Source: a virus. Taken from it: DNA of 61,948 nucleotides. The stretch lies in the IMG/VR virus record IMGVR_UViG_3300029778_000002, one strand, 5' to 3'. The notes under the pieces were generated by a model. That model saw nothing but the letters and a program-made list of their open reading frames with translations, searched no databases and was not told the DNA's origin. Shown one piece after another: positions 8,884 to 54,136 of this stretch (positions are counted from its first letter, which is position 1; each line of letters begins with the position of its first letter). Both the position numbers and the translations under genes were made by a program.

Positions 8884-9870
8884 TCAGATCTTGTCGATGA
8901 TGGGCCCGTCACAGTTGAACCGCAGCATCACCGAGCGCTCCCCGCCGTTGATAAAGCTGTTCAGTGCCTCGTCGCCCTCGACGTAGTTGGTCACACCAAA
9001 ATCCACGTGGTTCTGTCGGGTCGGGTCGTTCGGGTCATAGATCCAGCCAACGATCTGCCCTTCCGGGGTCTTCATGGTCACACCGCCGTGCGTTCCGATG
9101 CTGCTCAGAACGTCGTTCAGGAACAGGTGCCCCTGGATGCGCAGCCGCTTGTTTGCCGCCTGCTCCATCAGGAAAAGGTAGTTGCGGTTCAGCTGGTTGT
9201 CAGCCTGCCAGGTGTCCACAGTCTCGTCAAAGATGCAGGTATAGGGGCTGGTGTGCTGCATGGCGATGTCCTTGTATTCCTTGATGGTCTCCTCCACGCC
9301 CTGCTCGTTGGTGCTCTTGCTCTCGAGCTCCACAGCCTTGATGTTGTGCTCCAGCTCCTCCTGCACACGGCTGCCAAAGCGGTCGGATACACGGCTCTTG
9401 TATTCCTCAAAGGCCTTGTCCAGAGCAATATAAGCCGCGGTAAGGCTCGCATTGCGCTTGGACATAATGTGGTGGGAACCGAACATGCAGCCCAGAGATA
9501 CTGCACCCAGGGTGACCGCAGGCGCATACACCTTTGCCAGCTTCAGGCCGGTCTGGACGTAAGTGGTCGTAATATCGCTCTTGTAATCCTTCTCGGTGTA
9601 GGTCTCGCCCTCGCTCAGCTGGACCGTGCCATCCTCGATCTGCTTCTTGGCCGTGTGGATGCTCTCAACCTGAGCATAGTGCTCGGTCAGAATATCCTGT
9701 GCCTTGATGGTCGCCTTGCAGGCCAGCACGGTAGCAGTCACACCACCAATGGCAGCGCCAACGATCATAATGGTGGGGCTTGCCTTCTTCAGCTTGTAGC
9801 CGCACTTGGATGCAGCACGGGTCATCGTTTCCACGATTTCGGTTTTGTCGATCTTTTTCAGGAACTTCAT
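8884..9870 (-). CDS. Membrane-anchored protein, paralog family member 1 (328 aa)
   Basis: Start at ATG 9870 (AAAGGAT-TGATATTT-ATG). It shares an N-terminal TM, an RNASLTAAY...YK..V block and a GW..D C-terminal region with 11003..11788 and 12310..13128. Confidence 0.65.
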   Translation of the reverse strand: MKFLKKIDKTEIVETMTRAASKCGYKLKKASPTIMIVGAAIGGVTATVLACKATIKAQDILTEHYAQVESIHTAKKQIEDGTVQLSEGETYTEKDYKSDITTTYVQTGLKLAKVYAPAVTLGAVSLGCMFGSHHIMSKRNASLTAAYIALDKAFEEYKSRVSDRFGSRVQEELEHNIKAVELESKSTNEQGVEETIKEYKDIAMQHTSPYTCIFDETVDTWQADNQLNRNYLFLMEQAANKRLRIQGHLFLNDVLSSIGTHGGVTMKTPEGQIVGWIYDPNDPTRQNHVDFGVTNYVEGDEALNSFINGGERSVMLRFNCDGPIIDKI

Positions 9871-9893
9871 AAATATCAATCCTTTCTTATTGT

Positions 9894-10511
9894 TCAGCGC
9901 AGCGGTACAGGGCGAGGCAGCATCAGGCGATATCCGCCCGGGATGCCCTTGATGAACGCCCCGTCAAGGTTGTACCAGCCGTAATTGTAATCGGTGCTCT
10001 CGTTGGAAACGCCCATCAGATCCCACAGGTCGCCCACAGAAACCTGACCGTACTGGCGAATCGCATCATACATCTGGGAAAGCGTGTCGTCTGCATCCCC
10101 GCGGAACTCAAAGTCCAGGTTCTGCAAGCTGCGTCCTACGGCCCGGTTCGGATTCCCCTGCCGGTTGCCGGAGCCTCCCTGATAGTAGGTGTCATAGCTG
10201 TTCCGCTGGGTGCGGGAGCCGGAGTAGTTGCTCGAAGAGCCGCGGGAACGGTCCTCGCCAAACAGTGCAATGCTGACCGCAGAGTTAAAAATACTCCACA
10301 GACCGTTCTTCAGCATGGGCAGCAGATAGTCCACCACGATGCGGTTCTTCACGGTCTTGAGGTCCTCGGCCAGGAACTCGTTGGCGATCTTCTGGATATC
10401 GTTCTGCTCCTTGAGGGTCACTTTTCCTTTAACGACCTTCTGGAACTTCTTCTGGGGCTCTGCGACAGGCTGCTGTCCGATGCTGCTCTTCGGCATGTTT
10501 ACTTGTGCCAT
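9894..10511 (-). CDS. Hypothetical protein (205 aa)
   Basis: AAAGGA SD. Has a Gly/Ser/Asn-rich central linker. No confident domain. Confidence 0.55.
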   Translation of the reverse strand: MAQVNMPKSSIGQQPVAEPQKKFQKVVKGKVTLKEQNDIQKIANEFLAEDLKTVKNRIVVDYLLPMLKNGLWSIFNSAVSIALFGEDRSRGSSSNYSGSRTQRNSYDTYYQGGSGNRQGNPNRAVGRSLQNLDFEFRGDADDTLSQMYDAIRQYGQVSVGDLWDLMGVSNESTDYNYGWYNLDGAFIKGIPGGYRLMLPRPVPLR

Positions 10512-10526: not shown

Positions 10527-10568
10527 AAAAACAAAAAAGTAAGAGCCGCAGATTTCTCCACGGCTCTC
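10527..10568 (-). terminator. Rho-independent terminator (conserved family)
   Basis: The minus strand reads GAGAGCCGTGGAGAAATCTGCGGCTCTTAC plus a T-run. G-U pairs extend the stem only in the minus-strand RNA. Confidence 0.7.
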
Positions 10569-10581
10569 GCCTTACCTAACA

Positions 10582-10914
10582 TTACTTCTCTTCAGAAGTT
10601 TCCTCAACGTCCTCGTCAGGAACGTCCACCTGTGCAGAATCGACATTCTCGATCTTCCAGGGCTTCTGCCAGACGATCTTCTTCTTGGACTTCGGCTTCT
10701 CCTCGTCCTTGCTCTGCTTCTTGGCCTTGTGCTTCCGGTACAGTCCGTATCCCACGGCTGCAACCAGACCCACAGCACCAACAGCGAGACCAATGCCCGA
10801 GCCGTTGCTCGAAGTTTCCTCGTTATCGATCATCTGAACATTCTCCTCCGGAACGACCTCAACAGAAGTCTCGTTCTCCATAGTAGTTTCGTTCATGTTC
10901 ATCATTTCATCCAT
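10582..10914 (-). CDS. Small single-pass membrane protein (110 aa)
   Basis: Start moved to ATG 10914 (AAGAAAGAGG SD). The track ATG at 10968 lies inside the promoter-like motif. TM helix GIGLAVGAVGLVAAVGYGL. Confidence 0.6.
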   Translation of the reverse strand: MDEMMNMNETTMENETSVEVVPEENVQMIDNEETSSNGSGIGLAVGAVGLVAAVGYGLYRKHKAKKQSKDEEKPKSKKKIVWQKPWKIENVDSAQVDVPDEDVEETSEEK

Positions 10915-10964
10915 TTTTGTTACCTCTTTCTTAAATATAAATTTATAATGTCGGAGTATTACCT

Positions 10965-10990
10965 CCATAAAGGAAGCTGAATTTTTCGCG
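10965..10990 (-). promoter_or_regulatory. 26-nt promoter-like motif, copy 1
   Basis: Minus strand CGCGAAAAATTCAGCTTCCTTTATGG, 51 nt upstream of ATG 10914. Confidence 0.6.
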
Positions 10991-11002
10991 CCGGGTCAAA
11001 TA

Positions 11003-11788
11003 TCAATAGCCGCCCAGCCACTTCGGAGGCGTGTGATACTCCAGCGTCAGGCAGGGCATTCCATCCTCGTCCAGCCGGGACGCATAGAAAATATCAACGT
11101 TAAGCCCCGAATCCGTGTCCCAACCCAGCAGGTCACCGTTGACGCAGTGGTCGATGCCCAGATAGTCGAACAGATCATTCTCGCTCACCCGGAAGTCACT
11201 GAGCAGCTGTTTGTTGACCCCATTGACGGCCTTTTCGATCATGGCCTTGGTCGTCCAGAAGTAGGTGTTGGTCAGGCTTTCCCAGCACTTCACCCGCTGG
11301 TCGTAGGAAACATCGGTTGTGGCAAGGTTCTTGGCAGGCTGGATGGTTGCCGGTTCGGGGCACTTGGCCATCTTTTCCAGTGCAATGGTCTCCCGGATCT
11401 CCTGTTCCTTCTCGGGGCCGATGGCCTCCAGCACCTTGTCCTGATAGGTCTTGAGCGCGCTCTCAGAAAGGGTGCACGCCGCGGCCAGTGCAGCATTCCG
11501 CCGCTCGTCCACATGGACTGCACCAATGACGCAGCCCGCAGACAGCACCATGCTCAGCGCAGTCGGCACGTACACCGGGCCCGCCGTCTTGACAATGGTC
11601 TTCACGTCCAGCTTTTCCACGCCCAGCTCCTGCTTTTTCTCGTCCAGCAGGATCATGGCCTTGGGGGTGGCCGTCACAGCGAAATAGACCGCCGTGATGC
11701 TTCCCGTGATCGCCAGACCACCCAGGATCTTGGATGCGTTCTTTCCTGCGCTCCTGCGCACTGCCTTTGCAAATGTTTTCAGGTTCAT
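11003..11788 (-). CDS. Membrane-anchored protein, paralog family member 2 (261 aa)
   Basis: GGAGGT SD. N-terminal TM, an RRNAALAAACTLSESALKTYQDKV block and a GWDTDSGLNVD C-terminal region. Confidence 0.65.
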   Translation of the reverse strand: MNLKTFAKAVRRSAGKNASKILGGLAITGSITAVYFAVTATPKAMILLDEKKQELGVEKLDVKTIVKTAGPVYVPTALSMVLSAGCVIGAVHVDERRNAALAAACTLSESALKTYQDKVLEAIGPEKEQEIRETIALEKMAKCPEPATIQPAKNLATTDVSYDQRVKCWESLTNTYFWTTKAMIEKAVNGVNKQLLSDFRVSENDLFDYLGIDHCVNGDLLGWDTDSGLNVDIFYASRLDEDGMPCLTLEYHTPPKWLGGY

Positions 11789-11804
11789 CTTCGTACCTCC
11801 AAAA

Positions 11805-11844
11805 ATTTATAAAAAGAAAGAGCCTACGATTTCTCGTAAGCTCT
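11805..11844 (-). terminator. Rho-independent terminator (conserved family)
   Basis: Minus strand GAGCTTACGAGAAATCGTAGGCTC followed by TTTCTTTTTAT. Confidence 0.7.
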
Positions 11845-11850
11845 CGCCTT

Positions 11851-12075
11851 TCAGATATGTCCGTGCTGCTTCAAATTCTCGAAGCGAATTTCTGTTTCAC
11901 GCTGATCATCGCGCTCCAGTTGGATCTGGTAACGGATATACTCGTACAGTCTGGTCGGCTGCTTCTTCAGATAGTGATACAGCCCTGTAAAGCCGTATCC
12001 CACTGAACGTGCAACTGCCTTCAGTACGCGTACCATTGCCTTGTCCATCTTTGCATAATAGTCGTGATCGTACAT
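11851..12075 (-). CDS. Hypothetical small protein (74 aa)
   Basis: Start at ATG 12075 in the context AAAGGAGAT-TGATATTT-ATG. Confidence 0.55.
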   Translation of the reverse strand: MYDHDYYAKMDKAMVRVLKAVARSVGYGFTGLYHYLKKQPTRLYEYIRYQIQLERDDQRETEIRFENLKQHGHI

Positions 12076-12115
12076 AAATATCAATCTCCTTTGTTTGTCA
12101 GTTTGGATATCTCTT

Positions 12116-12141
12116 CCATAAGGGAGACTGTATTTTTCGCG
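12116..12141 (-). promoter_or_regulatory. 26-nt promoter-like motif, copy 2
   Basis: Minus strand CGCGAAAAATACAGTCTCCCTTATGG, 41 nt upstream of ATG 12075. Confidence 0.6.
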
Positions 12142-12142
12142 T

Positions 12143-12307
12143 TTACCGGTTCTTTTCTGCAAGCTGGCGCTGAACTTCCTCTCGCACCATGTCCTGCATT
12201 TCCTCTTCGCTGCGCTGCTCCTCGATCAGGTCATGGCCAAAGCTCAGGATTGCGCTTGCAGCCATCATGGCCACGGATGCAACTTTCCACCAATTGATCT
12301 TCTTCAT
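12143..12307 (-). CDS. Small membrane protein (54 aa, not in ORF track)
   Basis: GGAGA SD 6 nt before ATG 12307. Encodes MKKINWWKVASVAMMAASAILSF... and stops 1 nt before motif copy 2. Confidence 0.4.
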   Translation of the reverse strand: MKKINWWKVASVAMMAASAILSFGHDLIEEQRSEEEMQDMVREEVQRQLAEKNR

Positions 12308-12309
12308 AT

Positions 12310-13128
12310 TCATTCTCCTTTTTTCTCGCAGTAATCCGCATAGGGATCGTAGTTGATATAATTCTCGATGGGTGGCTGGAAAGCATCCACGTAGTAGACT
12401 TCAAGGCCGTCGTCTGTTGTCTGCTTGTAATACCGGAAGTCGATCCAATAATATTCCCATTCATTTGCCAGATAATCCGCCGACCAACCAGTTGTGTCCC
12501 CTTCCGGCAGATAATCCAGTCCGAGGTAATTATAAAGGTTGTTCATGGATGCCTCGCCATCCAGAGCAAAATCGCGGTTCATATGGTAGAATGCATCTGT
12601 CAATTCCACCTCTGTAGCATGGAAATATCTTTTTGAGATAGGCTCGTAGCAGAGTAGTTTTTCCTCTGCCATCTTGTCACGAACTTCAGGCAGCTTTTCT
12701 TCGCTGATCTGCTCCTGAATTTCTGCTTCTTTTTCCAGCCCGATGTTCTCAATCACCTTCTGCCGGTAGGTCTGATAGGTCTTTCCCAGTGCCATGTACG
12801 CCGCGGTCAGACTCGCGATCTGCTTTTTGTTCAGCGCGTTGGAGCCCAGGATGCAGGCAATGGTACCGCCGCCAAGAATCGCAGCCGGAACGTATGCTTT
12901 CCAGCACATCAGAACAATTTGTTTCTTTGTCGGAGGCCCTTCTGTCACGCCGAACTCGTCTTCGTTGAACTTTGTCAGCTCCTTGTCAACTTCAAGTATG
13001 TGCTTTGCCTTCGTGGTTGCCCGCCCGGTTTCAATGGCCGTTGCTACCACGCCTACAGATGCCGCCACCGCCAGAATGGTTCCGCCGTGTTTGCGCAAGA
13101 ATTTCGCGCATGTTTTCGTCAGTTTCAT
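12310..13128 (-). CDS. Membrane-anchored protein, paralog family member 3 (272 aa)
   Basis: GGAGGT SD. N-terminal TM, an NKKQIASLTAAYMALGKTYQTYRQKV block and a GWSADY C-terminal region. Confidence 0.65.
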   Translation of the reverse strand: MKLTKTCAKFLRKHGGTILAVAASVGVVATAIETGRATTKAKHILEVDKELTKFNEDEFGVTEGPPTKKQIVLMCWKAYVPAAILGGGTIACILGSNALNKKQIASLTAAYMALGKTYQTYRQKVIENIGLEKEAEIQEQISEEKLPEVRDKMAEEKLLCYEPISKRYFHATEVELTDAFYHMNRDFALDGEASMNNLYNYLGLDYLPEGDTTGWSADYLANEWEYYWIDFRYYKQTTDDGLEVYYVDAFQPPIENYINYDPYADYCEKKGE

Positions 13129-13146
13129 TGTTCAACCTCCATTTTG

Positions 13147-13181
13147 AAAAATAAAAGAGCCCACGATTTCTCGTAAGCTCT
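13147..13181 (-). terminator. Rho-independent terminator (conserved family)
   Basis: Minus strand GAGAGCTTACGAGAAATCGTGGGCTCTTTTATTTTT. Confidence 0.7.
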
Positions 13182-13189
13182 CGATTTGG

Positions 13190-13417
13190 TTAGCGCTTCA
13201 AATACTTTTCAGCCTGCTTCGTTCTCAGGAATTCATACAGCTTCCGTTCCCAATCCGGACTCTGGTCCTTCATAGCGTTATCGAGCGCATCTGCCGCCAA
13301 ATCTTCATTGCGCATCATAAGTTGTCTCCACATGATAGCAACGGAGTCAACGCAGAACAATTCGGTAATGCCATAAAACGCCACTGCGCCAAAAGCAACT
13401 TTCACCAATGTCTTCAT
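13190..13417 (-). CDS. Small membrane protein (75 aa)
   Basis: Start moved to ATG 13417 (GGAGGT SD). TM helix LVKVAFGAVAFYGITELF. Confidence 0.55.
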   Translation of the reverse strand: MKTLVKVAFGAVAFYGITELFCVDSVAIMWRQLMMRNEDLAADALDNAMKDQSPDWERKLYEFLRTKQAEKYLKR

Positions 13418-13457
13418 AATTTCGTACCTCCAAAATATAATTCTGAGACTAACCATC

Positions 13458-13483
13458 TCATAAAGCACCATGAAAATTTCGCG
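13458..13483 (-). promoter_or_regulatory. 26-nt promoter-like motif, copy 3
   Basis: Minus strand CGCGAAATTTTCATGGTGCTTTATGA, 41 nt upstream of ATG 13417. Followed by a conserved 5' leader shared with copies 13 and 14. Confidence 0.6.
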
Positions 13484-13708
13484 TCAGATCACATCAACCT
13501 TTTTGAGAATATCCATCAGCTGCGCCTTGGTCATCTCTGCATCCACTACAAGATGGATCTTCAACTTCTGCTCTTTTTCGCTCCAGTTCGCCTGAACCTC
13601 GCCCAGCTGTACCTCTGTACCGGGTAACTGCTTTTTCAGTATCTTATTGATGACCTGCGAGATGATGCGGCGCAGAAAACTTGACCGGATCAGCATAATG
13701 TCCTCCAT
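13484..13708 (-). CDS. Hypothetical small protein (74 aa)
   Basis: GGAGGT SD 9 nt before ATG 13708. Lies directly downstream of the tRNA-like gene. Confidence 0.5.
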   Translation of the reverse strand: MEDIMLIRSSFLRRIISQVINKILKKQLPGTEVQLGEVQANWSEKEQKLKIHLVVDAEMTKAQLMDILKKVDVI

Positions 13709-13738
13709 AATCGTTCAACCTCCAAAAATAAAAATGAA

Positions 13739-13808
13739 AAAAGAGAATGGGCCTCGAACCCATAACCTCCACAATGAAGTGGCGCTCTACCATTTGAGCT
13801 ATCTCCTC
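13739..13808 (-). tRNA. tRNA-like gene with a non-canonical anticodon arm (identity undetermined)
   Basis: Minus strand GAGGAGA-TA-GCTC-AAATGGTA-GAGC-G-CCAC-TTCATT-GTGG-AGGTT-ATGGG-TTCGAGG-CCCAT-TCTCTTT. The acceptor, D and T arms are standard. The anticodon stem closes a 6-nt loop (8 nt if the last pair opens). Confidence 0.5.
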
Positions 13809-13833
13809 CATAAGGGAACATGAATTTTTCGCG
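13808..13833 (-). promoter_or_regulatory. 26-nt promoter-like motif, copy 4 (drives the tRNA-like gene)
   Basis: Minus strand CGCGAAAAATTCATGTTCCCTTATGG. Its last G is nucleotide 1 of the tRNA-like acceptor stem. Confidence 0.6.
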
Positions 13834-13864
13834 GTTTGATAAAAAGATAAGAGGGCGTGATCTT

Positions 13865-14050
13865 TCAGATTTCGTCCTCTTCCAGATTGCTCTCTTCGTC
13901 TTTTGTATCAACCCAATTGTTCAGTTTGCTCATCTGATAATACGCCCATCCGCACAATGCCAAGCTAATGCTCGCACATACGGTGCAGTATTTGAAATAA
14001 GCCCCATAAGTAATAGGTTTGTTCATAAAGTTCTTAATAGCTTTCATCAT
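13865..14050 (-). CDS. Small membrane protein (61 aa)
   Basis: Start moved to ATG 14050 (AAAGGAGA SD). TM helix CASISLALCGWAYY. Confidence 0.5.
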   Translation of the reverse strand: MMKAIKNFMNKPITYGAYFKYCTVCASISLALCGWAYYQMSKLNNWVDTKDEESNLEEDEI

Positions 14051-14085
14051 AGTAATTTCTCCTTTCAATGCAAGCCCTCTTACCT

Positions 14086-14111
14086 CCATAATAGAAGCTG
14101 TATTTTTCGCG
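14086..14111 (-). promoter_or_regulatory. 26-nt promoter-like motif, copy 5
   Basis: Minus strand CGCGAAAAATACAGCTTCTATTATGG, 36 nt upstream of ATG 14050 and 1 nt after the preceding terminator. Confidence 0.6.
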
Positions 14112-14112
14112 C

Positions 14113-14149
14113 CGAAAAAGAAAGAGCCCACGCTTTCGCATCAGCTCTT
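14113..14149 (-). terminator. Rho-independent terminator
   Basis: Minus strand GAGCTGATGCGAAAGCGTGGGCTC followed by TTTCTTTTT. Confidence 0.65.
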
Positions 14150-14199
14150 CTCCGGGACGGCCCAACTCAAGTTGTGTTCAACCGGTCTATCGTCAATTA

Positions 14200-14337
14200 T
14201 CAGTCTTTCGACGGCCGGAATGCACGACACAACAGCCATACAATAACGGTTACAATCGCCATTGCAACTGCTGTCATGATCATCTGCCCAACCGTAATCG
14301 AATAATTCCAAATTTTCTTAAAAATAGATTCGTTCAT
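14200..14337 (-). CDS. Small membrane protein (45 aa, not in ORF track)
   Basis: AAAGGAGAATGTAAT-ATG at 14337. Encodes MNESIFKKIWNYSITVGQMIMTAVAMAIVTVIVWLLCRAFRPSKD. Confidence 0.4.
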   Translation of the reverse strand: MNESIFKKIWNYSITVGQMIMTAVAMAIVTVIVWLLCRAFRPSKD

Positions 14338-14367
14338 ATTACATTCTCCTTTTCTTGGGCCTTTGTC

Positions 14368-14393
14368 CCATAAAGCACGGAGAATTTTTCGCG
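14368..14393 (-). promoter_or_regulatory. 26-nt promoter-like motif, copy 6
   Basis: Minus strand CGCGAAAAATTCTCCGTGCTTTATGG, 31 nt upstream of ATG 14337. Confidence 0.6.
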
Positions 14394-14394
14394 C

Positions 14395-14757
14395 CTAGAT
14401 CAAACTCCGGTCAAACACGGTCTCCCAGCGTTCTTTCTTGAGGGGCTTCATGCGCAGTGCCCACATGATCTGTCGTACGGTCACAGTCGGGTACTCGCCC
14501 TTTGCGTTTTTCTTCTTGGCGTGACTGTCAAAATACTGCCGGAACCCTTCATGCAGATAGATCTTGTCGGTCAACCATGGGTCAATGGCGCTCCAGTAAG
14601 TAGCCTTGGTTTTCTCGTTGTAACGCTGCTGGATCACGCACAGGCCTTTCCCCTGTTCCCGGTAGAGCGTGCAGACACGGTACACCGGGTGATTGCACCG
14701 GTAAACGCTCCCGTAGTAGCTCGTCCACTCTTTTGGCGGTATGTCGTGATATCTCAT
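14395..14757 (-). CDS. Hypothetical protein (120 aa)
   Basis: Clean ORF from ATG 14757 (MRYHDIPPKEW...). It has no SD and no motif copy because it follows a terminator directly, so the start is uncertain. Confidence 0.45.
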   Translation of the reverse strand: MRYHDIPPKEWTSYYGSVYRCNHPVYRVCTLYREQGKGLCVIQQRYNEKTKATYWSAIDPWLTDKIYLHEGFRQYFDSHAKKKNAKGEYPTVTVRQIMWALRMKPLKKERWETVFDRSLI

Positions 14758-14800
14758 AAAAAATAAAGAGAGCCCGCAGCTTTCGCCACGAACCCTCTCG
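14758..14800 (-). terminator. Rho-independent terminator
   Basis: Minus strand GAGGGTTCGTGGCGAAAGCTGCGGGCTCTC followed by TTTATTTTTT. Confidence 0.6.
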
Positions 14801-14809
14801 GTTCCTCCT

Positions 14810-15214
14810 TTACTTTCTGTCCGTAAAGCCTCTTTTGATCTCATGGAGACCATCGTTCATTGCTCTGGAAAGCGGCGCTACACCGCCAGCCTCGCAGATC
14901 GACCAGTATACCGTCGTACCAATCGTTCCCAAAAACGTCAGGCAGCTGATGCCAAACTTCGCCCACTCAATGCGCCGTGCCTTCGCAGCCTTCTCCTGAT
15001 CGTTGATGACCTCCTGGCCCTTCCGCCGTTCCTCATCCTCTTTCAGGTTCTGGTTGCTCTCCTGCTCGTCGCTCTTGAGCTGCATGTCGTACAGCTGCAA
15101 TGCCATCTTCGCCGTGTTCGTGTACTCGTCCGTACCCGGTTTCAAGTCCTTGAGACTCTCCAGCGATTGCTTTGCCGCTTCCTTCAGCAATTCTTTGTTT
15201 TCGTAGTTTTCCAT
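14810..15214 (-). CDS. C-terminally membrane-anchored coiled-coil protein (134 aa)
   Basis: Start moved to ATG 15214 (AAAGGAGAAAATCAAA-ATG). Charged helical N-terminus with a hydrophobic tail. Confidence 0.55.
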   Translation of the reverse strand: MENYENKELLKEAAKQSLESLKDLKPGTDEYTNTAKMALQLYDMQLKSDEQESNQNLKEDEERRKGQEVINDQEKAAKARRIEWAKFGISCLTFLGTIGTTVYWSICEAGGVAPLSRAMNDGLHEIKRGFTDRK

Positions 15215-15251
15215 TTTGATTTTCTCCTTTACAAAGTAATTAGAGTTTCCT

Positions 15252-15277
15252 CCATTAAGCACCATGTTTTTCTCGCG
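15252..15277 (-). promoter_or_regulatory. 26-nt promoter-like motif, copy 7
   Basis: Minus strand CGCGAGAAAAACATGGTGCTTAATGG, 38 nt upstream of ATG 15214. It overlaps the 3' end of the upstream ORF. Confidence 0.55.
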
Positions 15278-15509
15278 TCAGGTCCAGTTTGTGCACCCGC
15301 AGCATGATGTACTTGTCGCCTTCAAAATTCTTCACCTCCTCATCCAGGCTCAGGCTCAGGTAGGGCCAGTCGGGGGAATCTTCCTCGCCGATCAGCAGCT
15401 CGCCCACTTCGTAAATATCACGGTAATGGAACCAGCGGTAGAGCGCCATCCCGAAGAGCAGCCCCAGAACGATGGCAACGAATAACACAGCATAGTAGAT
15501 GTACAGCAT
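15255..15509 (-). CDS. Small membrane protein (84 aa)
   Basis: AAAGGAGA SD. TM helix YYAVLFVAIVLGLLFGMALY. Confidence 0.55.
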   Translation of the reverse strand: MLYIYYAVLFVAIVLGLLFGMALYRWFHYRDIYEVGELLIGEEDSPDWPYLSLSLDEEVKNFEGDKYIMLRVHKLDLTREKHGA

Positions 15510-15561
15510 TTTGAAAATCTCCTTTTAATAATGTAGTGGATAAAACGGTCTTCTGCGTGAT

Positions 15562-15599
15562 GAAAAAATAAAAGAGCCTACGATTTCTCGTAAGCTCTC
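15562..15599 (-). terminator. Rho-independent terminator (conserved family)
   Basis: Minus strand GAGAGCTTACGAGAAATCGTAGGCTCTTTTATTTTTT. Confidence 0.7.
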
Positions 15600-15605
15600 T
15601 ACGCC

Positions 15606-15839
15606 TTAGATGTCGTTGCGAATCAGAAACAGGTCATTTCTGCTTCGAGTTGCTCTCACAATTCCTCCTGCCCGGATCAATGTAATTGCATTTACATAAG
15701 CCGCGCGTGCATTTTTTGCATCCTTGTATTCGTCCGTATTCACAAACATCACTTTCTGGTTGCTTTCGATAAACACCCGCACCTTATCCATTGCATTCAC
15801 ATAGCCCCGGTCAAAGTTCGTCTTTACTCGATAGTTCAT
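15606..15839 (-). CDS. Hypothetical small protein (77 aa)
   Basis: AAAGGAGA SD before ATG 15839. Confidence 0.55.
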   Translation of the reverse strand: MNYRVKTNFDRGYVNAMDKVRVFIESNQKVMFVNTDEYKDAKNARAAYVNAITLIRAGGIVRATRSRNDLFLIRNDI

Positions 15840-15879
15840 AAATAATAATCTCCTTTATTCATATTCGGAAGACATCCTT

Positions 15880-15905
15880 CCATAAAGCACGGGGAAAATT
15901 TCGCG
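15880..15905 (-). promoter_or_regulatory. 26-nt promoter-like motif, copy 8
   Basis: Minus strand CGCGAAATTTTCCCCGTGCTTTATGG, 41 nt upstream of ATG 15839. Confidence 0.6.
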
Positions 15906-15932
15906 TTGCTTCGTTACGGCCTATTCTAAAAT

Positions 15933-15972
15933 AGAAAAAAGAAAAGAGCGCATGTTTCCATACGCCCGTTTT
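15933..15972 (-). terminator. Rho-independent terminator
   Basis: Minus strand GGGCGTATGGAAACATGCGCTC followed by TTTTCTTTTTT. Confidence 0.6.
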
Positions 15973-15986
15973 CCGGTCAGAATCCA

Positions 15987-16133
15987 TCAGCGGATACCAC
16001 ACCGAACATCATTCAGCATGAGGAGTTCTTCGCCCTCATTCCAGCCTGCATACTTGTCGCTATACGACTCGTTAAATGCGGCCATAATAGAGTTCATCAT
16101 TTCCTCAAAGCCCTTCACAATATTCTTCAGCAT
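15987..16133 (-). CDS. Small acidic protein (48 aa, not in ORF track)
   Basis: TAGGAGGT SD before ATG 16133. Encodes MLKNIVKGFEEMMNSIMAAFNESYSDKYAGWNEGEELLMLNDVRCGIR. Confidence 0.4.
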   Translation of the reverse strand: MLKNIVKGFEEMMNSIMAAFNESYSDKYAGWNEGEELLMLNDVRCGIR

Positions 16134-16165
16134 AGTAAATACCTCCTAAAATTGTTTATTTCTTT

Positions 16166-16191
16166 CCATAATAGAAGGTGAAATTTTCGCG
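16166..16191 (-). promoter_or_regulatory. 26-nt promoter-like motif, copy 9
   Basis: Minus strand CGCGAAAATTTCACCTTCTATTATGG, 33 nt upstream of ATG 16133. Confidence 0.6.
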
Positions 16192-16196
16192 TCTGC

Positions 16197-16229
16197 GTAA
16201 AAAATAAGAGCCTGTGTTTCCACAAGCTC
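16197..16229 (-). terminator. Rho-independent terminator
   Basis: Minus strand GAGCTTGTGGAAACACAGGCTC followed by TTATTTTTT. Confidence 0.65.
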
Positions 16230-16237
16230 CATTTTGA

Positions 16238-16348
16238 TCAGTGTTTCTTCTTTGTTCTGCTTTTCACCTCGTTTGTCTTTGCTCCGATCAGCTTTGCCAG
16301 CCTGACCAGAATCACAACGATCAAAATCCAGATAATCAAGTTAAACAT
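16238..16348 (-). CDS. Tiny membrane peptide (36 aa, not in ORF track)
   Basis: AAAGGTGG SD before ATG 16348. Encodes MFNLIIWILIVVILVRLAKLIGAKTNEVKSRTKKKH. Confidence 0.35.
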   Translation of the reverse strand: MFNLIIWILIVVILVRLAKLIGAKTNEVKSRTKKKH

Positions 16349-16364
16349 ATTAACATACCACCTT

Positions 16365-16390
16365 TCATAAAGGCGGCTGTATTTTTCGCG
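16365..16390 (-). promoter_or_regulatory. 26-nt promoter-like motif, copy 10
   Basis: Minus strand CGCGAAAAATACAGCCGCCTTTATGA, 17 nt upstream of ATG 16348. Confidence 0.55.
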
Positions 16391-16396
16391 TCCAGA

Positions 16397-16432
16397 TAAA
16401 AAGAAAAAGCCGCAGATTTCTCCACGGCTCTC
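16397..16432 (-). terminator. Rho-independent terminator (conserved family)
   Basis: Minus strand GAGAGCCGTGGAGAAATCTGCGGCTTTTTCTTTTT. Confidence 0.7.
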
Positions 16433-16436
16433 GCCT

Positions 16437-16733
16437 TTATAAAACGATGTAGTTCGTCGGTTTGGTTACATGCTCGATGATTCCTGCTTTCTTCAGCAGC
16501 TCAAAGTCTCGTGCAATGCCGCCCAGGTCATAGTTTTCGAGCCTGAGCTGATACTCGCATTTCTTATGATCCTTATCACCACAGCTTCCCAGCTTGTCTA
16601 CCAGTGAATCAATGATTCGACTGTCAACATCGCAGTTTCTGCGGATGACTTCTCTCATAAGATCGCGACGATCAGTCATATCGTCAACACCCTTCACGTC
16701 AATGTACATAATAGTCTTTTTTGCCTTAAACAT
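16437..16733 (-). CDS. Hypothetical protein (98 aa)
   Basis: AAAGGAGA SD before ATG 16733. Confidence 0.55.
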   Translation of the reverse strand: MFKAKKTIMYIDVKGVDDMTDRRDLMREVIRRNCDVDSRIIDSLVDKLGSCGDKDHKKCEYQLRLENYDLGGIARDFELLKKAGIIEHVTKPTNYIVL

Positions 16734-16776
16734 AGTAAAATCTCCTTTACATAATCAAATTTTCGTGAACTTTCGT

Positions 16777-16802
16777 CCATAAAGGAGCCTGTATTTTTCG
16801 CG
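16777..16802 (-). promoter_or_regulatory. 26-nt promoter-like motif, copy 11
   Basis: Minus strand CGCGAAAAATACAGGCTCCTTTATGG, 44 nt upstream of ATG 16733. It starts immediately after the stop of the regulator gene. Confidence 0.6.
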
Positions 16803-17234
16803 TCATGCCCGCTCCCGGCTGAGGATCCAGAAGAATTTGCGATAGTTGTTGTAGTAAGTATCCTTGCAGCATGGGCACCCCTTGATCCGGAGGGCTTCAT
16901 AGGAATGTCCTTCTGTCACGCCGCGCAGAATATAAGGCGCGATTGCTGGTTCCAGTTCGCCCAGGCAGTTCTCCAGCAGATCGACCCTATTCGAATAGAA
17001 TGCTCGCGCCATCGCCATTTGCTCTGTCGGGTTCGAGGGTGTTGCATTGACGATTGCGCCCGTGCTTTCCGGAAACGCTTTCCATCCGTCGATGCGTACC
17101 AATGCGCGCTTCCATTCGTCGTATTGTCGGCAAAAATGTTTCAGTTCGTAATACCGATGCTTTGAAATATAATAAGGATTCTTTTTCGATAGCTCCGCCC
17201 GTTCGCCACGCATGATTTCGTTACAGTTTTTCAT
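16803..17234 (-). CDS. Phage transcription regulator, sigma-70 region-4-like (ArpU/RinA-type) (143 aa)
   Basis: AAAGGAG SD. YYELKHFCRQYDEWK and the C-terminal GHSYEALRIKG...YYNNYRKFFWIL resemble small sigma-like late-gene activators of Bacillota phages. Confidence 0.45.
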   Translation of the reverse strand: MKNCNEIMRGERAELSKKNPYYISKHRYYELKHFCRQYDEWKRALVRIDGWKAFPESTGAIVNATPSNPTEQMAMARAFYSNRVDLLENCLGELEPAIAPYILRGVTEGHSYEALRIKGCPCCKDTYYNNYRKFFWILSRERA

Positions 17235-17383
17235 AAAGTAGACTCCTTTGCACTATTTCTCAGCCCACGCTGAGTTCAAAGGAATACTACTGGAAAAAAC
17301 TGTCGTCTGCGTCCTGTTTTATTTTATTCTGGGTGAAGCGTTGCCCATTTTGAAATCTATCGTTTAATCTAGAATAGAATTCA

Positions 17384-17417
17384 TAAAAGAAAAAGCCCGG
17401 AAAATCCGAGCTTTTCA
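17384..17417 (-). terminator. Rho-independent terminator after int
   Basis: Minus strand AAAGCTCGGATTTTCCGGGCTTTTTCTTTT. Confidence 0.7.
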
Positions 17418-47337: not shown

Positions 47338-47371
47338 TGCAATAACCTCGTTTCACATTCTTATTTTGCTT

Positions 47372-47524
47372 TTGCAAGGGTTCATGGGAGTCGCAGTAGT
47401 ACCAGTTAAGCCTGTCTCATTTGAAAGGAGAAGAAAAAGCAGATCATGCCCAATGGAGGTTGAACATCGTGAAAGCCCTGAACCCAAACATATAGGAGGA
47501 TACTACTCCCATGAGCCCTTGCAA
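47372..47524. repeat. Long-range inverted repeat (about 27 bp stem, one 3-nt bulge, one mismatch) in the packaging-module leader
   Basis: TTGCAAGGGTTCATGGGAGTcgcAGTAGTA (47372-47401) pairs with TACTACTCCCATGAGCCCTTGCAA (47501-47524). Confidence 0.8.
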
Positions 47525-47751
47525 AAACCGCCGAAGCCCCGGTCTACACCCCAGAACCTCGGCGATTTCCCATATGACTGTAAATCTTAACACCTGCTGT
47601 GGATACAGGCATCGAGAGTTTACACAAATATAATCGGCAGCTTTCGCTGTCGGAGCCTTAAAGCCAAAATATCAATTTTCCCTCCGGGGAAATATCAAAG
47701 ACCGGCGCGATTTGAGAGGGGGTGTCGATTTTGAGACCCCCTCCCTATGGT

Positions 47752-48021
47752 TTACGCGGTTTGGCCGAGCGTGTCCTCGTCGGGCACAGTAATCTTGAGC
47801 TTCTTGTAAATGTTTATCGGGTCGGCAGCAACGATCTTGTCGATTGCCTTCTCAATTTCATAGGCGTTTTCATTGTCCGTGAACTGAGAGGAGGTCTCGG
47901 CGATCCTCATAAGCAAACCGGAAGAGTTGTAGCCATGTGCGATATCATACTGATACCACTTCTCGAACTCATCGTACGGACTGTACGGGTTATCAAAAGT
48001 GGTGAGAAAGCACCGAACCAT
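47752..48021 (-). CDS. Hypothetical protein (89 aa)
   Basis: Clean ORF, followed by the GAGGGGGT...ACCCCCTC hairpin at about 47715-47745. Confidence 0.5.
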   Translation of the reverse strand: MVRCFLTTFDNPYSPYDEFEKWYQYDIAHGYNSSGLLMRIAETSSQFTDNENAYEIEKAIDKIVAADPINIYKKLKITVPDEDTLGQTA

Positions 48022-48049: not shown

Positions 48050-50824
48050 TTACTTGTCGAGTGCGCTGTAAATCGTAGATTTAGGCACACCGCATGCCTT
48101 GGCAACCTCATCATATGACGCGCCAAGATTGAGCATTGCTTTTGCCTTTGCCAATTTGGCAGAAGACAACGTAGCCGTTGCTTTCGGCATTGCACGCTTT
48201 ACAATTTCGTCAGAATCAGACGAATTAAGGAACTTCGTCAACATATTGTCGGAAATTGCGCCAGCCTGAACAGCTTCCCATTCTCTGTCCGTGAAGGTAA
48301 CCTTGGACTTGCGTCCGCTTGCACCAACAGAATCGCGAGCACGCTGCATCTCGACAGAAGAGATCTTCTTGATTACCTTCTTATCTTCCGAAATGTTGGG
48401 ATCAAGCCCCTGTTCCTGAATCTTCGCCTTAATATTCGCGTTCGCAATCAGCATTGCTTTGCGCTCTTTAGGCTTGTTAGCGATCATGTTGTTATACTTT
48501 TCTTTCAGAGAAGCAACCTCAGGCGCATAGGTCTTGGCGGCAGAAGGACTGTATTCAAGTCCCTTCATATTTACCGCCTCTTTGCGCGCCTGATTGGCCA
48601 TAGCCTTCAACTTGTTAGAGAAGTCCGCGTACAGGTTCTCCTGAATAGTACCAGAAGACAGTGTTCGCGCATCTTTGGTCTCCGATATAAGACTGACCGT
48701 GTCCTCGGCCTTACGTTCCTTACCCGTCTTAGGGTCAACGAAGGTACGTCCACTTTCTTTGTAGATGTATTCACCAGTTTCCTTATCGACTCGAATACTA
48801 CCACGGCGCTCGGGTACACGAACCGTCTGCTTACGGCGAGACAGGAGCGTGGATGCGCCACCATAGTGTATAGCGCCTTCCTCATCCACACGAATCTGCC
48901 ACTTCTGCTTCAGCTCGGGAATGCCATTCTCCTGCTCAGACCGCTTGTAGTCCAACTTATGTTTTTCAGCATCGATAACGACCATGGAGTGTTTAACGGC
49001 ACGTGCCAGCTCGTCCTCGTCGGCACCACGCAGTGTCATGTCAGTGATGAGGTTGGAAATCACGCCCATTTCGCGCTGCTTGTCTTCTTTCTTCATCAAC
49101 CTGACATTATTTGGATTGCCTTCAGGAACTGCATAAGCGGTCTTGGGATCAAATCCTTCCAATGCTTTCAGCGCACGGGTGGACTTAATGTTGACTTTGT
49201 CAGTAACCGGGATTGCCATGACTGTGTCGCCATCGAAATCAGCACCAGACAGCCGCTCTGCAACCTTTGCATTGATACCGATTGCATCCTGAATTGCACC
49301 GAGATTCCGCTTGCCGCTGACATTCTTGTTGTTGACAGTCACGATGGGAATCTCAAAGGTACCTGCATGGGGATAACGGATCAGTGCAAGCCTGGTGCCA
49401 TTCTCATAGGTGGGGCAATAAGCCTCGGTCTCCTTGATCTTATTGATTGGCAGGATAACCTTCGTGGACTGGCCCGGGAAAGCAGACGCTTTCAGGGTCA
49501 TGGACGTTCCTTCGACGGTATCAGCAAAATCGTAGAGCAGCTTCTTTTTGACCGTAGGATTATCATAGTGCATGATCTCGTCATACTGCGCCTGATAATC
49601 CGCAACGGTAAGCTTCAACTGATTCTCAATCAGCTTCTTGGGCTGCTTGGAAAGGAACTGAGAAGAGACATTCCGAGACATCGTGTCCCAGTCGCCTTCC
49701 TCCTTCAGCTTGTTGATCGGCGAGAGGTGCTCTTTGCCGTCATCACCGATATACATACTCTGGCCGTTGGCCTTGATAGCTGCGCCAAACGGGTTGTCAG
49801 GATCCGCTTTTGCTTCTTTAAGGACCTTCATCTTGGGCGTGCCAGAAGGCTTATTGGTGTTGAACATAACGTCCACACCATCCGGCAGATCATCAGAATA
49901 GACTGCCATGCCCTTCAGATAATGGTCGCCGTCAACAAGGATGCGAACCTGCGCATAATGGCTCTTGCCGAGATCAAGGTCAGGAACACCACGGCGAATT
50001 TCCATGACACCGTCTTTATCCAGACCGCCTTCATCGCCATAACGAATTGCAACTCGACTGGAATCCAGACTAGAGGGGCGCTGAAGCTTCGTGAAGGTCT
50101 CGCCGCCATCATCTGTATGATAATCGCCAAGTGAATCGATCTGTTCCTGATGATTGTAGGCATACTTCTGATCGAACTCTGGTTTCGCAAGCACCATGAT
50201 ATTGGTCTGCTGGCGATTGTTTGTCGGTTGCTTAATGCCTACGCCGTAACGCTTATAACCGTATTCGGCCTCTAACGTATATGCCGCATCCTGAAGTTCA
50301 GTATCAGTTACGCCCAACGCAAAGTTTGCGCCCTCCGAAACATCGATCATTCCCTTTTTATCGACTTCTTTTTTCAGAGTTTCGGCGATGTTTTTTGCAC
50401 GCTGCGCTTTTTTGTCTGCATTTCCGGCATATTTGGATCGAACGCTCGATTCGCTCATTCCAAGCTGGTTGGCAATTTCAGTCCAGCCAAGGTGATCTTC
50501 GTCTTTCAGCTTATGGATCTGCTCGTATTCTGATGTTTTCCGCTCATGAATGGCAGTTCGCTTTGCCACACGGAATTCGGACAGGCTCATCTGATACTCT
50601 TTCGGAAGAGAGTCATTAATGCTCTCCAGAATATCTTTCTCAGACAGCCCTTTCTTCTTCAGAACTTCCACACGAGACAGGAAATCGCCGGAATGCTGAT
50701 ACGGATTATCGCCGGAACCCCAAGGATAGCGACCAGAATGCCGCTTGGTACCATAGTGCTCCAGGATATTGCTTTCGGAAGTGATGCCAAAATAAGAACG
50801 GAGGTCTTTTTCAATCGGATTCAT
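48050..50824 (-). CDS. Single-chain two-barrel (DPBB) RNA polymerase candidate, YonO-like, with N- and C-terminal HTH modules (924 aa)
   Basis: Beta-like barrel: GDHYLKGMAVYSDDLPDGVDVMFNTNK (about 49862-49935), compared with bacterial beta GDKMAGRHGNKGV...DMP...G.PVDIVLNPL. Beta'-like barrel: LIRYPHAGTFEIP...SGADFDGDTVMAIP (DFDGD at 49226-49240), compared with beta' LNRAPTLH...NADFDGDQMAVH. Confidence 0.65.
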   Translation of the reverse strand: MNPIEKDLRSYFGITSESNILEHYGTKRHSGRYPWGSGDNPYQHSGDFLSRVEVLKKKGLSEKDILESINDSLPKEYQMSLSEFRVAKRTAIHERKTSEYEQIHKLKDEDHLGWTEIANQLGMSESSVRSKYAGNADKKAQRAKNIAETLKKEVDKKGMIDVSEGANFALGVTDTELQDAAYTLEAEYGYKRYGVGIKQPTNNRQQTNIMVLAKPEFDQKYAYNHQEQIDSLGDYHTDDGGETFTKLQRPSSLDSSRVAIRYGDEGGLDKDGVMEIRRGVPDLDLGKSHYAQVRILVDGDHYLKGMAVYSDDLPDGVDVMFNTNKPSGTPKMKVLKEAKADPDNPFGAAIKANGQSMYIGDDGKEHLSPINKLKEEGDWDTMSRNVSSQFLSKQPKKLIENQLKLTVADYQAQYDEIMHYDNPTVKKKLLYDFADTVEGTSMTLKASAFPGQSTKVILPINKIKETEAYCPTYENGTRLALIRYPHAGTFEIPIVTVNNKNVSGKRNLGAIQDAIGINAKVAERLSGADFDGDTVMAIPVTDKVNIKSTRALKALEGFDPKTAYAVPEGNPNNVRLMKKEDKQREMGVISNLITDMTLRGADEDELARAVKHSMVVIDAEKHKLDYKRSEQENGIPELKQKWQIRVDEEGAIHYGGASTLLSRRKQTVRVPERRGSIRVDKETGEYIYKESGRTFVDPKTGKERKAEDTVSLISETKDARTLSSGTIQENLYADFSNKLKAMANQARKEAVNMKGLEYSPSAAKTYAPEVASLKEKYNNMIANKPKERKAMLIANANIKAKIQEQGLDPNISEDKKVIKKISSVEMQRARDSVGASGRKSKVTFTDREWEAVQAGAISDNMLTKFLNSSDSDEIVKRAMPKATATLSSAKLAKAKAMLNLGASYDEVAKACGVPKSTIYSALDK

Positions 50825-51698: not shown

Positions 51699-51724
51699 CC
51701 ATAAAAGGGGATGTTTTTCTCGCG
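51699..51724 (-). promoter_or_regulatory. 26-nt promoter-like motif, copy 12
   Basis: Minus strand CGCGAGAAAAACATCCCCTTTTATGG, 56 nt upstream of ATG 51643. Confidence 0.55.
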
Positions 51725-51767: not shown

Positions 51768-51808
51768 CAAAAGAAAAAGCCCCTGCGTTTTTCGCGCAGA
51801 GGCTGTTG
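51768..51808 (-). terminator. Rho-independent terminator
   Basis: Minus strand GCCTCTGCGCGAAAAACGCAGGGGC followed by TTTTTCTTTT. Confidence 0.7.
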
Positions 51809-54102: not shown

Positions 54103-54136
54103 TAAAAATAAGAGCCGCAGATTTCTCCACGGCTCA
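54103..54136 (-). terminator. Rho-independent terminator (conserved family)
   Basis: Minus strand GAGCCGTGGAGAAATCTGCGGCTCTTATTTTTATT. Confidence 0.7.

Follow-up and report, generated by a model that had tools for sequence, protein, structure and literature searches.

What transcribes about a dozen small phage genes that lie in tandem, most of them behind their own copy of one motif and ahead of a terminator? The question is raised by a stretch of virus DNA of 61,948 nucleotides (IMG/VR record IMGVR_UViG_3300029778_000002; this whole stretch is called the window below), in which positions 10527–16802 had been described, from the letters alone, as an array of mini-cassettes bounded by a promoter-like motif and a terminator. 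We confirmed that the array is real. The explanation that we favour, at a probability of about 55%, is that the motif copies are promoters of the phage's own polymerase, a predicted YonO-like RNA polymerase (RNAP) of 924 aa, and that they are paired with terminators into portable cassettes like the promoter–early stem-loops (PeSLs) of T4-type phages; it is drawn from the comparison of sequences. The window belongs to an Oengusvirus-type siphovirus, related to Faecalibacterium phage FP_oengus at 78% identity; its genome has cos ends, a gene for a tape measure protein and HK97-like head genes.

The pattern CGCGAAAWWT-N10-TTATGR has 12 matches in the window at no more than one mismatch, all on the minus strand, where shuffled sequences are expected to give 0.02, and a position weight matrix scan added two further degenerate copies, at 15252 and 51699. 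The resulting 14 copies, with the consensus CGCGA[A/G]AWWW-N-TTATGR and 11 of them within 10965–16802, are free of indels and length variation, and all are co-oriented with the genes, every gene of the window being on the minus strand. Both scans thus bear out the preliminary description in its count (11 copies in the array and three at 51699, 54437 and 58841) and in the constant length of 26 nt. Its N9 spacer is ruled out, as the literal N9 pattern has 0 matches in the window; N8 is correct and gives the total of 26 nt. Positions C1–A7, C12 and T21–G25 are invariant, positions 14–20 are variable and specific to the gene downstream, and positions 19–24 form a hexamer that reads CTTTAT or CCTTAT in most copies. 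No dyad symmetry was found in the motif, and complementarity between its spacer and the downstream sequence of the same site is not in excess of that with permuted partners (4.44 versus 4.40±0.09), on which ground an N4-like hairpin promoter or an RNA stem was rejected; the promoters of the N4 virion RNAP are DNA hairpins with a conserved stem and loop. An exact-pattern scan of 596 Gb of bacterial genomes gave, among the matches listed, only scattered single copies at about the chance rate and was uninformative. In the literature searched we found no paper that gives these motif strings, or promoters for phage 1706, for YonO-like enzymes or for this polymerase family.

A typical unit consists of the motif, a leader of 16–55 nt with a Shine–Dalgarno (SD) sequence, an open reading frame (ORF) of 36–134 aa, and a hairpin of 9–15 bp with a GAAA-type loop and a T-run. 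The short leader with an SD had been described before, with a range of 17–56 nt; the range measured here is about 16–55 nt, the start codons of the 14086 and 13458 units having been set by hand. The copies and their units are as follows.

16777–16802, minus strand: motif of unit H, beginning at the stop codon of the gene for a 143-aa protein; ORF 16437–16733 (98 aa); terminator 16405–16432.
16365–16390, minus strand: motif of unit I; 16-nt leader with the SD AAGGTGG 2 nt past the motif; ORF 16238–16348 (36 aa, hydrophobic); terminator 16207–16230.
16166–16191, minus strand: motif of unit B; ORF 15987–16133 (48 aa); terminator 15946–15967.
15880–15905, minus strand: motif of unit C; ORF 15606–15839 (77 aa); terminator 15571–15600; then a motif-less ORF, 15255–15509 (84 aa).
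15252–15277, minus strand: degenerate motif CGCGAGAAAAACATGGTGCTTAATGG, inside the 3' end and TAA of ORF 15255–15509; then ORF 14810–15214 (134 aa).
14766–14799, minus strand: terminator of the 15252 unit, followed by a motif-less ORF, 14395–14757 (120 aa, phrog_17256).
14368–14393, minus strand: motif of unit J; ORF 14200–14337 (45 aa, hydrophobic); terminator about 14115–14150, 3 nt ahead of the next motif.
14086–14111, minus strand: motif; ORF 13865–14050 (61 aa, hydrophobic), with no clear hairpin afterwards.
13808–13833, minus strand: motif of the tRNA unit, its last base being position 1 of the tRNA-like gene.
13739–13808, minus strand: tRNA-like gene with a 6-nt anticodon loop, UUCAUU; in the same unit then ORF 13484–13708 (74 aa).
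13458–13483, minus strand: motif of unit G; shared 5' untranslated region (5'UTR) GAGATGRTTAGTCTCARAATTATATTTTGGAGGT; ORF 13190–13417 (75 aa); terminator 13155–13182.
12310–13128 and 12143–12313, minus strand: a DUF6353 gene and an ORF that follow the terminator of unit G, both motif-less.
12116–12141, minus strand: motif of unit E; ORF 11851–12075 (74 aa); terminator 11818–11845; then a motif-less DUF6353 gene, 11003–11788.
10965–10990, minus strand: motif of unit F; ORF 10582–10914 (110 aa); terminator 10541–10568; then a motif-less ORF, 9894–10511.
58841–58866, minus strand: outlying motif; 5'UTR and terminator (58533–58560) the same as in unit G around an unrelated ORF, 58581–58799 (72 aa).
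54437–54462, minus strand: outlying motif; 5'UTR the same as in unit G; terminator 54112–54135; unrelated ORF 54143–54394 (83 aa).
51699–51724, minus strand: outlying motif CGCGAGAAAAACATCCCCTTTTATGG, after terminator 51778–51804, heading a nuclease–RNAP operon.

The degeneracy of the 15252 copy comes from its overlap with the last codons and the TAA of the ORF before it. Several cassette ORFs are hydrophobic, and searches of Pfam and PHROG with these ORFs gave no functional assignment and no Pfam family. Six sets of genes lie behind a terminator or an ORF with no motif of their own (15255–15509, 14395–14757, 13484–13708, 12310–13128 with 12143–12313, 11003–11788 and 9894–10511) and must therefore depend on read-through. 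Most small genes thus do sit in a unit of their own, as first described, but the array is not purely monocistronic.

Where would transcription begin? The 5' end of the tRNA-like gene, an Rfam tRNA match of 47.5 bits that substantiates the earlier call, is the last motif base in the window and lies within 1 nt of the motif end in FP_oengus. In unit I only 16 nt separate the motif from the ATG; among relatives, the SDs of units N, T and O follow TTAT-G by 1–2 nt, and in Lactococcus phage 1706 an extended SD, AGAAAGAAGG, comes directly after TATAGT. These positions imply a start at or before motif position 25–26, and we infer that transcription starts at the 3' end of the motif (the G of TTATG-G/A).

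This geometry is not that of a sigma-70 promoter, in which −35 and −10 hexamers lie 17±1 nt apart, with A at −11 and T at −7, and the start is 6–8 nt downstream. The conserved blocks of the motif are 5 nt apart (ACA-N5-hexamer), not 17; no second conserved block was seen 17 nt upstream of the hexamer, nor a −35 element at 16–18 nt; and the hexamer of the window, CTTTAT or CCTTAT, lacks the −11 A. Since the −10 hexamer of sigma-70 promoters ends 6–8 nt ahead of the start, TTTATG cannot be one. Scans for sigma-70 promoters over four regions (about 59 kb of the 62-kb window) gave counts at the level of shuffles, so that no host-type promoter can be assigned to the gene of the 143-aa protein or to the RNAP operon. 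The non-sigma-70 layout claimed in the preliminary description is thus upheld. A contiguous block that ends in an A/T-rich segment and a purine start is, by analogy, the layout of phage-polymerase promoters.

The 5'UTR shared by three units (58815–58840, 54411–54436 and 13432–13457, minus strand) opens with a small hairpin, GAGATGRTTAGTCTC, at the predicted +1, and the promoters of Gordonia phage Petito, described below, are all followed by GAGACCCCTAYGAAAGGA. Both could be conserved initially transcribed sequences or 5' stabilisers.

We then compared relatives. FP_oengus has 14–15 motif copies at homologous positions, all on the gene strand and one abutting its own tRNA-like gene. Among about 100 IMG/VR relatives the motif matches only on the gene strand, with 9–14 copies per array downstream of the gene for the 143-aa protein. 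In distant phages, repeats were sought in the equivalent small-gene arrays, and one degenerate pattern was counted in all genomes against expectations from Markov simulations. The motifs and counts are given below.

Window: gene strand 9, opposite strand 2, expected 1.9.
FP_oengus: gene strand 12, opposite strand 0, expected 1.8.
Circum (Arthrobacter): CGCGTAAATTACA-N5-TATAAT-GA; gene strand 9, opposite strand 1, expected 1.6.
Petito (Gordonia): CGCR-N3-ATTACA-N5-TATAATGAGACCCC; gene strand 10, opposite strand 0, expected 0.8.
Camille (Microbacterium): CGCG-A-rich-AACA-N5-TAT(G/A/T)(G/A)T-GAGAAC; gene strand 8, opposite strand 2, expected 0.6.
1706 (Lactococcus): CACATGTTTTACA-N5-TATAGT-AGAAAG; gene strand 8, opposite strand 0, expected 1.4.
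HotFries (Streptomyces, 61% GC): CGCACGTTTTACA-N5-TATAGTGAGACCCC; gene strand 3, opposite strand 1, expected 0.5, not significant by count.

The motifs of Circum, Petito, Camille, 1706 and HotFries align without gaps to CGCGAAAAATACA-N5-CTTTAT-GG of the window, and the common layout is 24 nt long: C-R-C-R, an A/T-rich stretch, ACA, N5, a TATAAT-like hexamer and a purine start. The HotFries copies lie where the array begins and ahead of the RNAP operon. Indeed, in every lineage one copy heads an operon of VRR-Nuc, Cas4-exonuclease and RNAP genes (window 51699, FP_oengus 27684, Circum 54407, Camille locus 33397, HotFries 39594, MT835495 609), and the layout is present in all seven RNAP-positive lineages examined. 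MT835495 has the RNAP and late genes and neither an array nor a homolog of the 143-aa protein; its operon-proximal copies are its only ones. MT835477, which has such a homolog and no RNAP nearby, has no motif. What is new here, as these alignments suggest, is that the same promoter-like layout occurs in distant phages that share the RNAP.

The genes concerned are as follows.

48050–50824, minus strand: YonO-like two-barrel RNAP, the proposed reader, 924 aa.
51323–51643 (VRR-Nuc), 50821–51423 (Cas4-like exonuclease) and the RNAP gene, minus strand: nuclease–RNAP operon, headed by the 51699 copy.

The 924-aa translation contains the catalytic-loop motif GADFDGD (DxDGD) and matches phrog_4291, 'RNA-dependent RNA polymerase', with E=0; in its homologs the Pfam matches to RNA-dependent RNA polymerases (RdRPs) are below threshold, at 16–22 bits. 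An N-terminal helix-turn-helix (HTH; residues about 106–131) matches sigma70_r4_2 above the Pfam cut-off, a second HTH occupies residues 895–922 at the C terminus, and both regions are kept across the family. A sequence search of the PDB with the protein found nothing. We predict from these features a YonO-like RNAP with the two-barrel fold. In FP_oengus the protein is gp55; its homologs in the distant phages are 34–45% identical, and among the proteins common to all these phages it is the sole DNA-binding candidate for a role in transcription. A preprint describes the YonO/RdRP-like RNAP (HHpred probability 95.7%) as the signature protein of a phage supercluster that joins Faecalibacterium and Lactococcus phages with those of Arthrobacter, Gordonia, Rhodococcus, Microbacterium and Streptomyces; promoters were not looked at there. 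In the GenBank record of phage 1706 the depositors labelled the homolog, orf75, 'structural protein'; the labels of this kind reportedly derive from virion mass spectrometry.

Taken as a mechanism, the 26-nt motif would be a compact phage-specific promoter with the start at its 3' end, read by the 924-aa single-subunit enzyme with its sigma-region-4-like HTHs at both ends. Each promoter would abut the terminator of the preceding unit, so that promoter, 5'UTR with SD, small ORF and terminator would form a self-contained cassette, and genes behind a terminator without a motif would be expressed at a lower level by read-through. The 51699 copy would drive the nuclease–RNAP operon, which in circular or concatemeric DNA would run over cos into the late region. 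Delivery of the RNAP in the virion would allow it to read the promoters of early-looking genes, and crAss-like phages and P23-45 are precedents for a virion-borne two-barrel RNAP acting at early promoters.

Several points weigh against this explanation. Its link between promoter and polymerase comes from comparing genomes. If a promoter of the same type also drives the RNAP operon, the first enzyme molecules must have another source, either packaging in the virion or a host promoter, and the sigma-70 scans of the window found no host promoter for the operon. A virion enzyme would be useless for prophage induction, so that a host-dependent route probably exists too. The perfect TATAAT of the actinophage versions is sigma-A-like. 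MT835485 has at least 18 motif copies and a homolog of the 143-aa protein with no RNAP in the record, although this prophage is truncated and thus not decisive. Finally, YonO transcribes late genes, not early ones (PMC5467207), and the early transcripts of the gp66 RNAP of a crAss-like phage have no common motif.

The preliminary description had named two candidate readers, the RNAP and the protein encoded immediately upstream of the array.

16803–17234, minus strand: gene of the 143-aa protein (phrog_11237), a rival or auxiliary reader, restricted to the Faecalibacterium-type lineage.

Host RNAP might be redirected by this protein, acting as a small sigma-like factor or a MotA-like activator, with analogous but non-homologous factors in the other lineages. 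The place of the gene fits this, the first motif copy beginning at its stop codon, as does its family of 3402 proteins, of which the members in the relative L104 and in MT835485 (44–50% identical) have the motif downstream. The box-plus-hexamer layout also resembles that of T4 middle promoters. The AlphaFold2 model of the protein (pLDDT 81.6) is helical, with a C-terminal HTH-like trio, and extracytoplasmic function (ECF) sigmas are among its weak Foldseek hits; these are, however, at noise level (E > 1), the PDB sequence profile is insignificant and no Pfam family matches, so that the label 'sigma-r4-like' given to it earlier was not confirmed. Circum, Petito, Camille, 1706 and MT835495, all of which have the layout, gave no homolog with a profile hidden Markov model of the family, and a single-sequence search of a collection of genome contigs with the protein found nothing; by tblastn against phage records the RNAP is found in 251 and the 143-aa protein in only 4. 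The MT835477 member, 30% identical, lies between TerL and portal with neither motif nor RNAP nearby. MT835485 had been considered as a control with regulator and without RNAP, and was dropped because its prophage scaffold breaks off short of the late region and has bacterial genes on its opposite side. Redirected host RNAP would, moreover, still need for sigma-A region 2 the −11 A that the hexamer lacks, and a start about 7 nt downstream of the hexamer instead of abutting it. We therefore consider this reading unlikely. The comparison favours the 924-aa RNAP and disfavours the 143-aa protein as the sole reader; the latter may be an auxiliary factor in this lineage.

That the host housekeeping sigma alone reads the motif, as ordinary early promoters of unusual layout kept uniform by recombination, is in our view improbable. 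Circum and Petito do have the perfect hexamer TATAAT, and 1706 has TATAGT; the array sits where early genes would, and T4-type PeSLs do use sigma-70 promoters; but the second block lies only 5 nt upstream with no −35 at 16–18 nt, the Faecalibacterium hexamers have no −11 A, a start 6–8 nt past the hexamer would not fit ahead of the SDs and the tRNA 5' end, and the CGCG/ACA box is kept in phages of different host phyla. Given a Faecalibacterium hexamer unfit for sigma-A and a homologous layout across host phyla, a conserved phage-encoded reader is the economical answer, and the layout follows the RNAP into the Actinobacteria and Lactococcus phages with no detectable homolog of the 143-aa protein. 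More improbable still is that the motif is not a promoter but an integron-like recombination or capture site, a repressor operator, or a signal for RNA processing or 5' stability. A tyrosine recombinase gene does lie just upstream of the array, cassettes are gained and lost at the motif, and the motif-less genes behind terminators imply read-through. Yet the motif lacks dyad symmetry, its spacer complementarity is at chance, and its copies are strictly co-oriented, placed after strong terminators and at a fixed short distance ahead of SDs; a copy heads the RNAP operon in Circum, Camille and 1706, which are lytic and have no integrase, and the type and orientation of the integrase differ between the window and FP_oengus while the motif does not. 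Integron cassettes end in an attC-type imperfect inverted repeat, are promoterless and depend on an integron-type integrase. They were rejected because the motif has no symmetry and precedes the ORFs, the hairpins with their T-runs are terminators of the canonical kind and the integrase is a generic phage tyrosine recombinase.

If the motif is a promoter of the phage polymerase, its pairing with terminators would define the cassettes. The terminators listed for the array, from 16432–16405 down to 10568–10541, are all strong minus-strand hairpins with a T-run; in the late region, 18.4–38 kb, no strong same-strand terminators were found. The recurrent terminator reported earlier, GAGAGC-yyryg-GAGAAATC-yryrg-GCTCTT, was recovered in seven near-identical copies with compensating stem changes, plus one at 941–968; two of the seven (58533–58560 and 54112–54135) are far from the array. 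Terminator and next promoter are close together, as had been stated; the distance from T-run to motif, for example at the 16390, 16191, 14111 and 51724 copies, is 3–14 nt.

We cut the arrays of 20 relatives at the motifs and clustered the units. The arrays are collinear, in the order H I [L] [K] B C D [M/N] [P] [O] [T] J A A G E F, and they differ by the presence or absence of whole motif-to-terminator units, those marked by brackets (L, K, M, N, O, P, T) being optional. The tRNA-like unit lies between B and C in FP_oengus and after unit A in the window. At the junctions the variable spacer of the motif goes with the downstream gene, while the upstream side consists of the preceding terminator, its T-run and the linker ttacgca(c)aga; the exchange point thus lies in the shared stretch of T-run, linker and CGCGAAAA. 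As this stretch of about 20–45 nt is present at every junction, homologous recombination could add, delete or move whole cassettes. The units at 58841, 54437 and 13458 have 64 nt of promoter and 5'UTR, and the terminator, in common around three unrelated ORFs. New ORFs would in this way enter an existing regulatory shell by recombination at the junctions, and the array would be the hyperplastic accessory-gene region of the phage. Relatives thus show what the preliminary description had expected of them, namely content that varies within constant boundaries. Its notion of shuffling units holds for gain and loss, for one relocation and for the shared shell; free reordering was not seen among the 20 arrays.

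One optional unit, L, of about 159 nt (L083 2193–2353, L090 2447–2604, FP_oengus (L001) 2490–2636; not in the window), has the motif and the terminator around no convincing ORF and has no annotated coding sequence in FP_oengus. It may be a small-RNA cassette. Three paralogous DUF6353 genes lie among the cassettes (8884–9879, 11003–11788 and 12310–13128, minus strand; E 1e-63 to 1e-72); since homologs are found in the actinophage relatives, these genes belong to the conserved backbone and not to the accessory set.

How does the array compare with known systems? PeSLs join a terminator stem-loop to a host sigma-70 early promoter (TTGACA-N17-TATAAT or a close variant) in T4-type phages (Arbiol et al. 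2010; Comeau et al. 2014, PMC4122927). They belong to the hyperplastic regions of T4-like myoviruses, where recombination between tandem copies excises minicircles. The window likewise has a terminator stem-loop joined to a putative promoter and repeated many times among small, variable genes annotated without function, indels between close relatives bounded by these elements, and one shell around unrelated ORFs. However, its promoter would be a 26-nt phage-specific signal, its phage is a temperate Faecalibacterium siphovirus and not a T4-like myovirus (the design is also found in siphoviruses of Actinobacteria and Lactococcus), and its relatives show only the presence or absence of units and one relocation. 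The likeness to PeSLs drawn earlier therefore stands as a functional analogy, not as membership. Morons, too, are small accessory genes with their own promoter and terminator, here by the integrase end of the prophage, but classical morons are single and use host promoters, whereas the window has about a dozen in tandem with one phage-specific family of promoters and terminators.

On the side of the enzyme, phage P23-45 (gp96/gp64; bioRxiv 10.1101/2022.12.01.518664) also has a two-barrel RNAP and a conserved motif upstream of many starts, whose presence tracks the polymerase among relatives, and its virion-borne RNAP reads early promoters. There the link was made by Cappable-seq and ChIP-seq, whereas for the window phage it is comparative; the RNAP family of the window, about 900 aa long with HTHs at both ends, goes with another motif and with promoter–terminator cassettes. 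YonO of SPbeta (Forrest et al. 2017, PMC5467207) is likewise a single-chain two-barrel RNAP of about 100 kDa with a DxDGD loop; its gene, too, belongs to a temperate siphovirus and immediately precedes a long late operon. It is remote kin, however, and transcribes the late genes from a single start, whereas the family of the window adds sigma-r4-like HTHs and a multi-copy candidate promoter. T7-type promoters are similar as contiguous blocks of about 23–26 bp that end at the start, with a TATA-like segment, a purine start and hairpin-plus-U-run terminators, but the enzyme of the window is not T7-like (Pol I fold) and has no sequence relationship to it, so that this is an analogy of layout only.

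The original 2017 paper (PMC5467207) states the promoter and the factor requirement of YonO as undetermined. With a candidate promoter that occurs in many copies and has a predicted +1, the specificity of YonO-type enzymes for promoters becomes directly testable. A bolder form of our explanation, which we hold only tentatively and at somewhat less than even odds, is that the motif is the first promoter consensus for a widespread family of two-barrel RNAPs of about 900 aa with fused sigma-region-4-like HTHs, that the enzyme travels in the virion and needs no other factor to initiate on a promoter of 24–26 bp, and that the layout serves phages of Clostridia, Bacilli and Actinobacteria as a host-agnostic socket for accessory genes. 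If the main explanation is confirmed, a gut-commensal phage would offer a compact orthogonal set of polymerase, promoter and terminator; the expression of early-looking genes without host-type promoters would be accounted for; and the PeSL idea, with junctions as recombination linkers, would extend beyond T4-like phages and host promoters. In the bolder form, expression independent of the host sigma would also make the shell host-agnostic, helping to explain how the lineage crossed phyla.

The genome ends bear on how far transcription of the RNAP operon can reach.

47660–47750, minus strand: predicted cos, ...TCGCGCCGGTCT / TTGATATTTCCCCGGAGGG..., cut near 47699/47698.

Past the small gene downstream of the RNAP lies a non-coding block of about 90 nt; its conservation extends to MT835495, and it matches the physical ends of Circum, HotFries and 1706 (...GCATCGCC...CT / C...TTTCCCCG...). 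From this match we place cos near 47699/47698 and take the window for a cos-ended genome in circularly permuted form. Virion DNA would then have the late genes on its left and the RNAP operon on its right end, and transcription from the 51699 copy would reach the late genes only across closed cos. The sequence TTGATATTT occurs twice just inside the left genome end. Downstream of cos, 47350–47600 (minus strand) holds a hairpin with a T-run, CGCCGAGG...CTTCGGCG-TTTTT, and then a long-range inverted repeat, TTTTGCAAGGGCTCATGGG ... CCCATGAACCCTTGCAAAA, with arms about 170 nt apart, which is partly kept in FP_oengus; this region, which precedes the first late gene, may encode a non-coding RNA or have a part in late control. 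The small gene directly after the RNAP (47752–48021, minus strand) encodes an 89-aa protein found in every RNAP-bearing phage examined, MT835495 included, at 29–79% identity. It is a candidate for a polymerase partner or for a packaging factor next to cos.

MT835495 (L109/L110) is a human-gut phage that has the RNAP operon, cos and the head–tail genes in common with the window, whereas the array and the replication module are not shared. Ahead of its start codons stands AAAATCAAAATGG in place of an SD, a Bacteroidota-like translation context, so that the polymerase module may also occur in phages of a further phylum.

At the other end of the array, the tyrosine recombinase gene just upstream differs in type and orientation between the window and FP_oengus. 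A block, CTATTCTAGRTTAAACGATAGATTT (17340–17390, minus strand; FP_oengus (L001) 1450–1490), is conserved between the integrase terminator and the gene of the 143-aa protein; it includes TCTAT...ATAGA and is a possible operator or att-related site. The ends of many IMG/VR contigs lie about 1.15–1.4 kb upstream of the gene of the 143-aa protein, which fits a prophage boundary beside the integrase.

Copies of the tRNA-like gene are also found in FP_oengus (L001, 2935–3006) and in MT835485 (near 45660). Their anticodon loops have 6 nt instead of 7 (UUCAUU in the window, UUGAUU in FP_oengus, AUUAUU in MT835485), and ARAGORN gives the copies of the window and of FP_oengus a 2-base anticodon and calls no tRNA in MT835485. 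Anticodons CAU, GAU and UAU, if that is how the loops are to be read, would all belong to the Ile/Met box. The gene could encode an unusual decoder or a decoy for anticodon nucleases.

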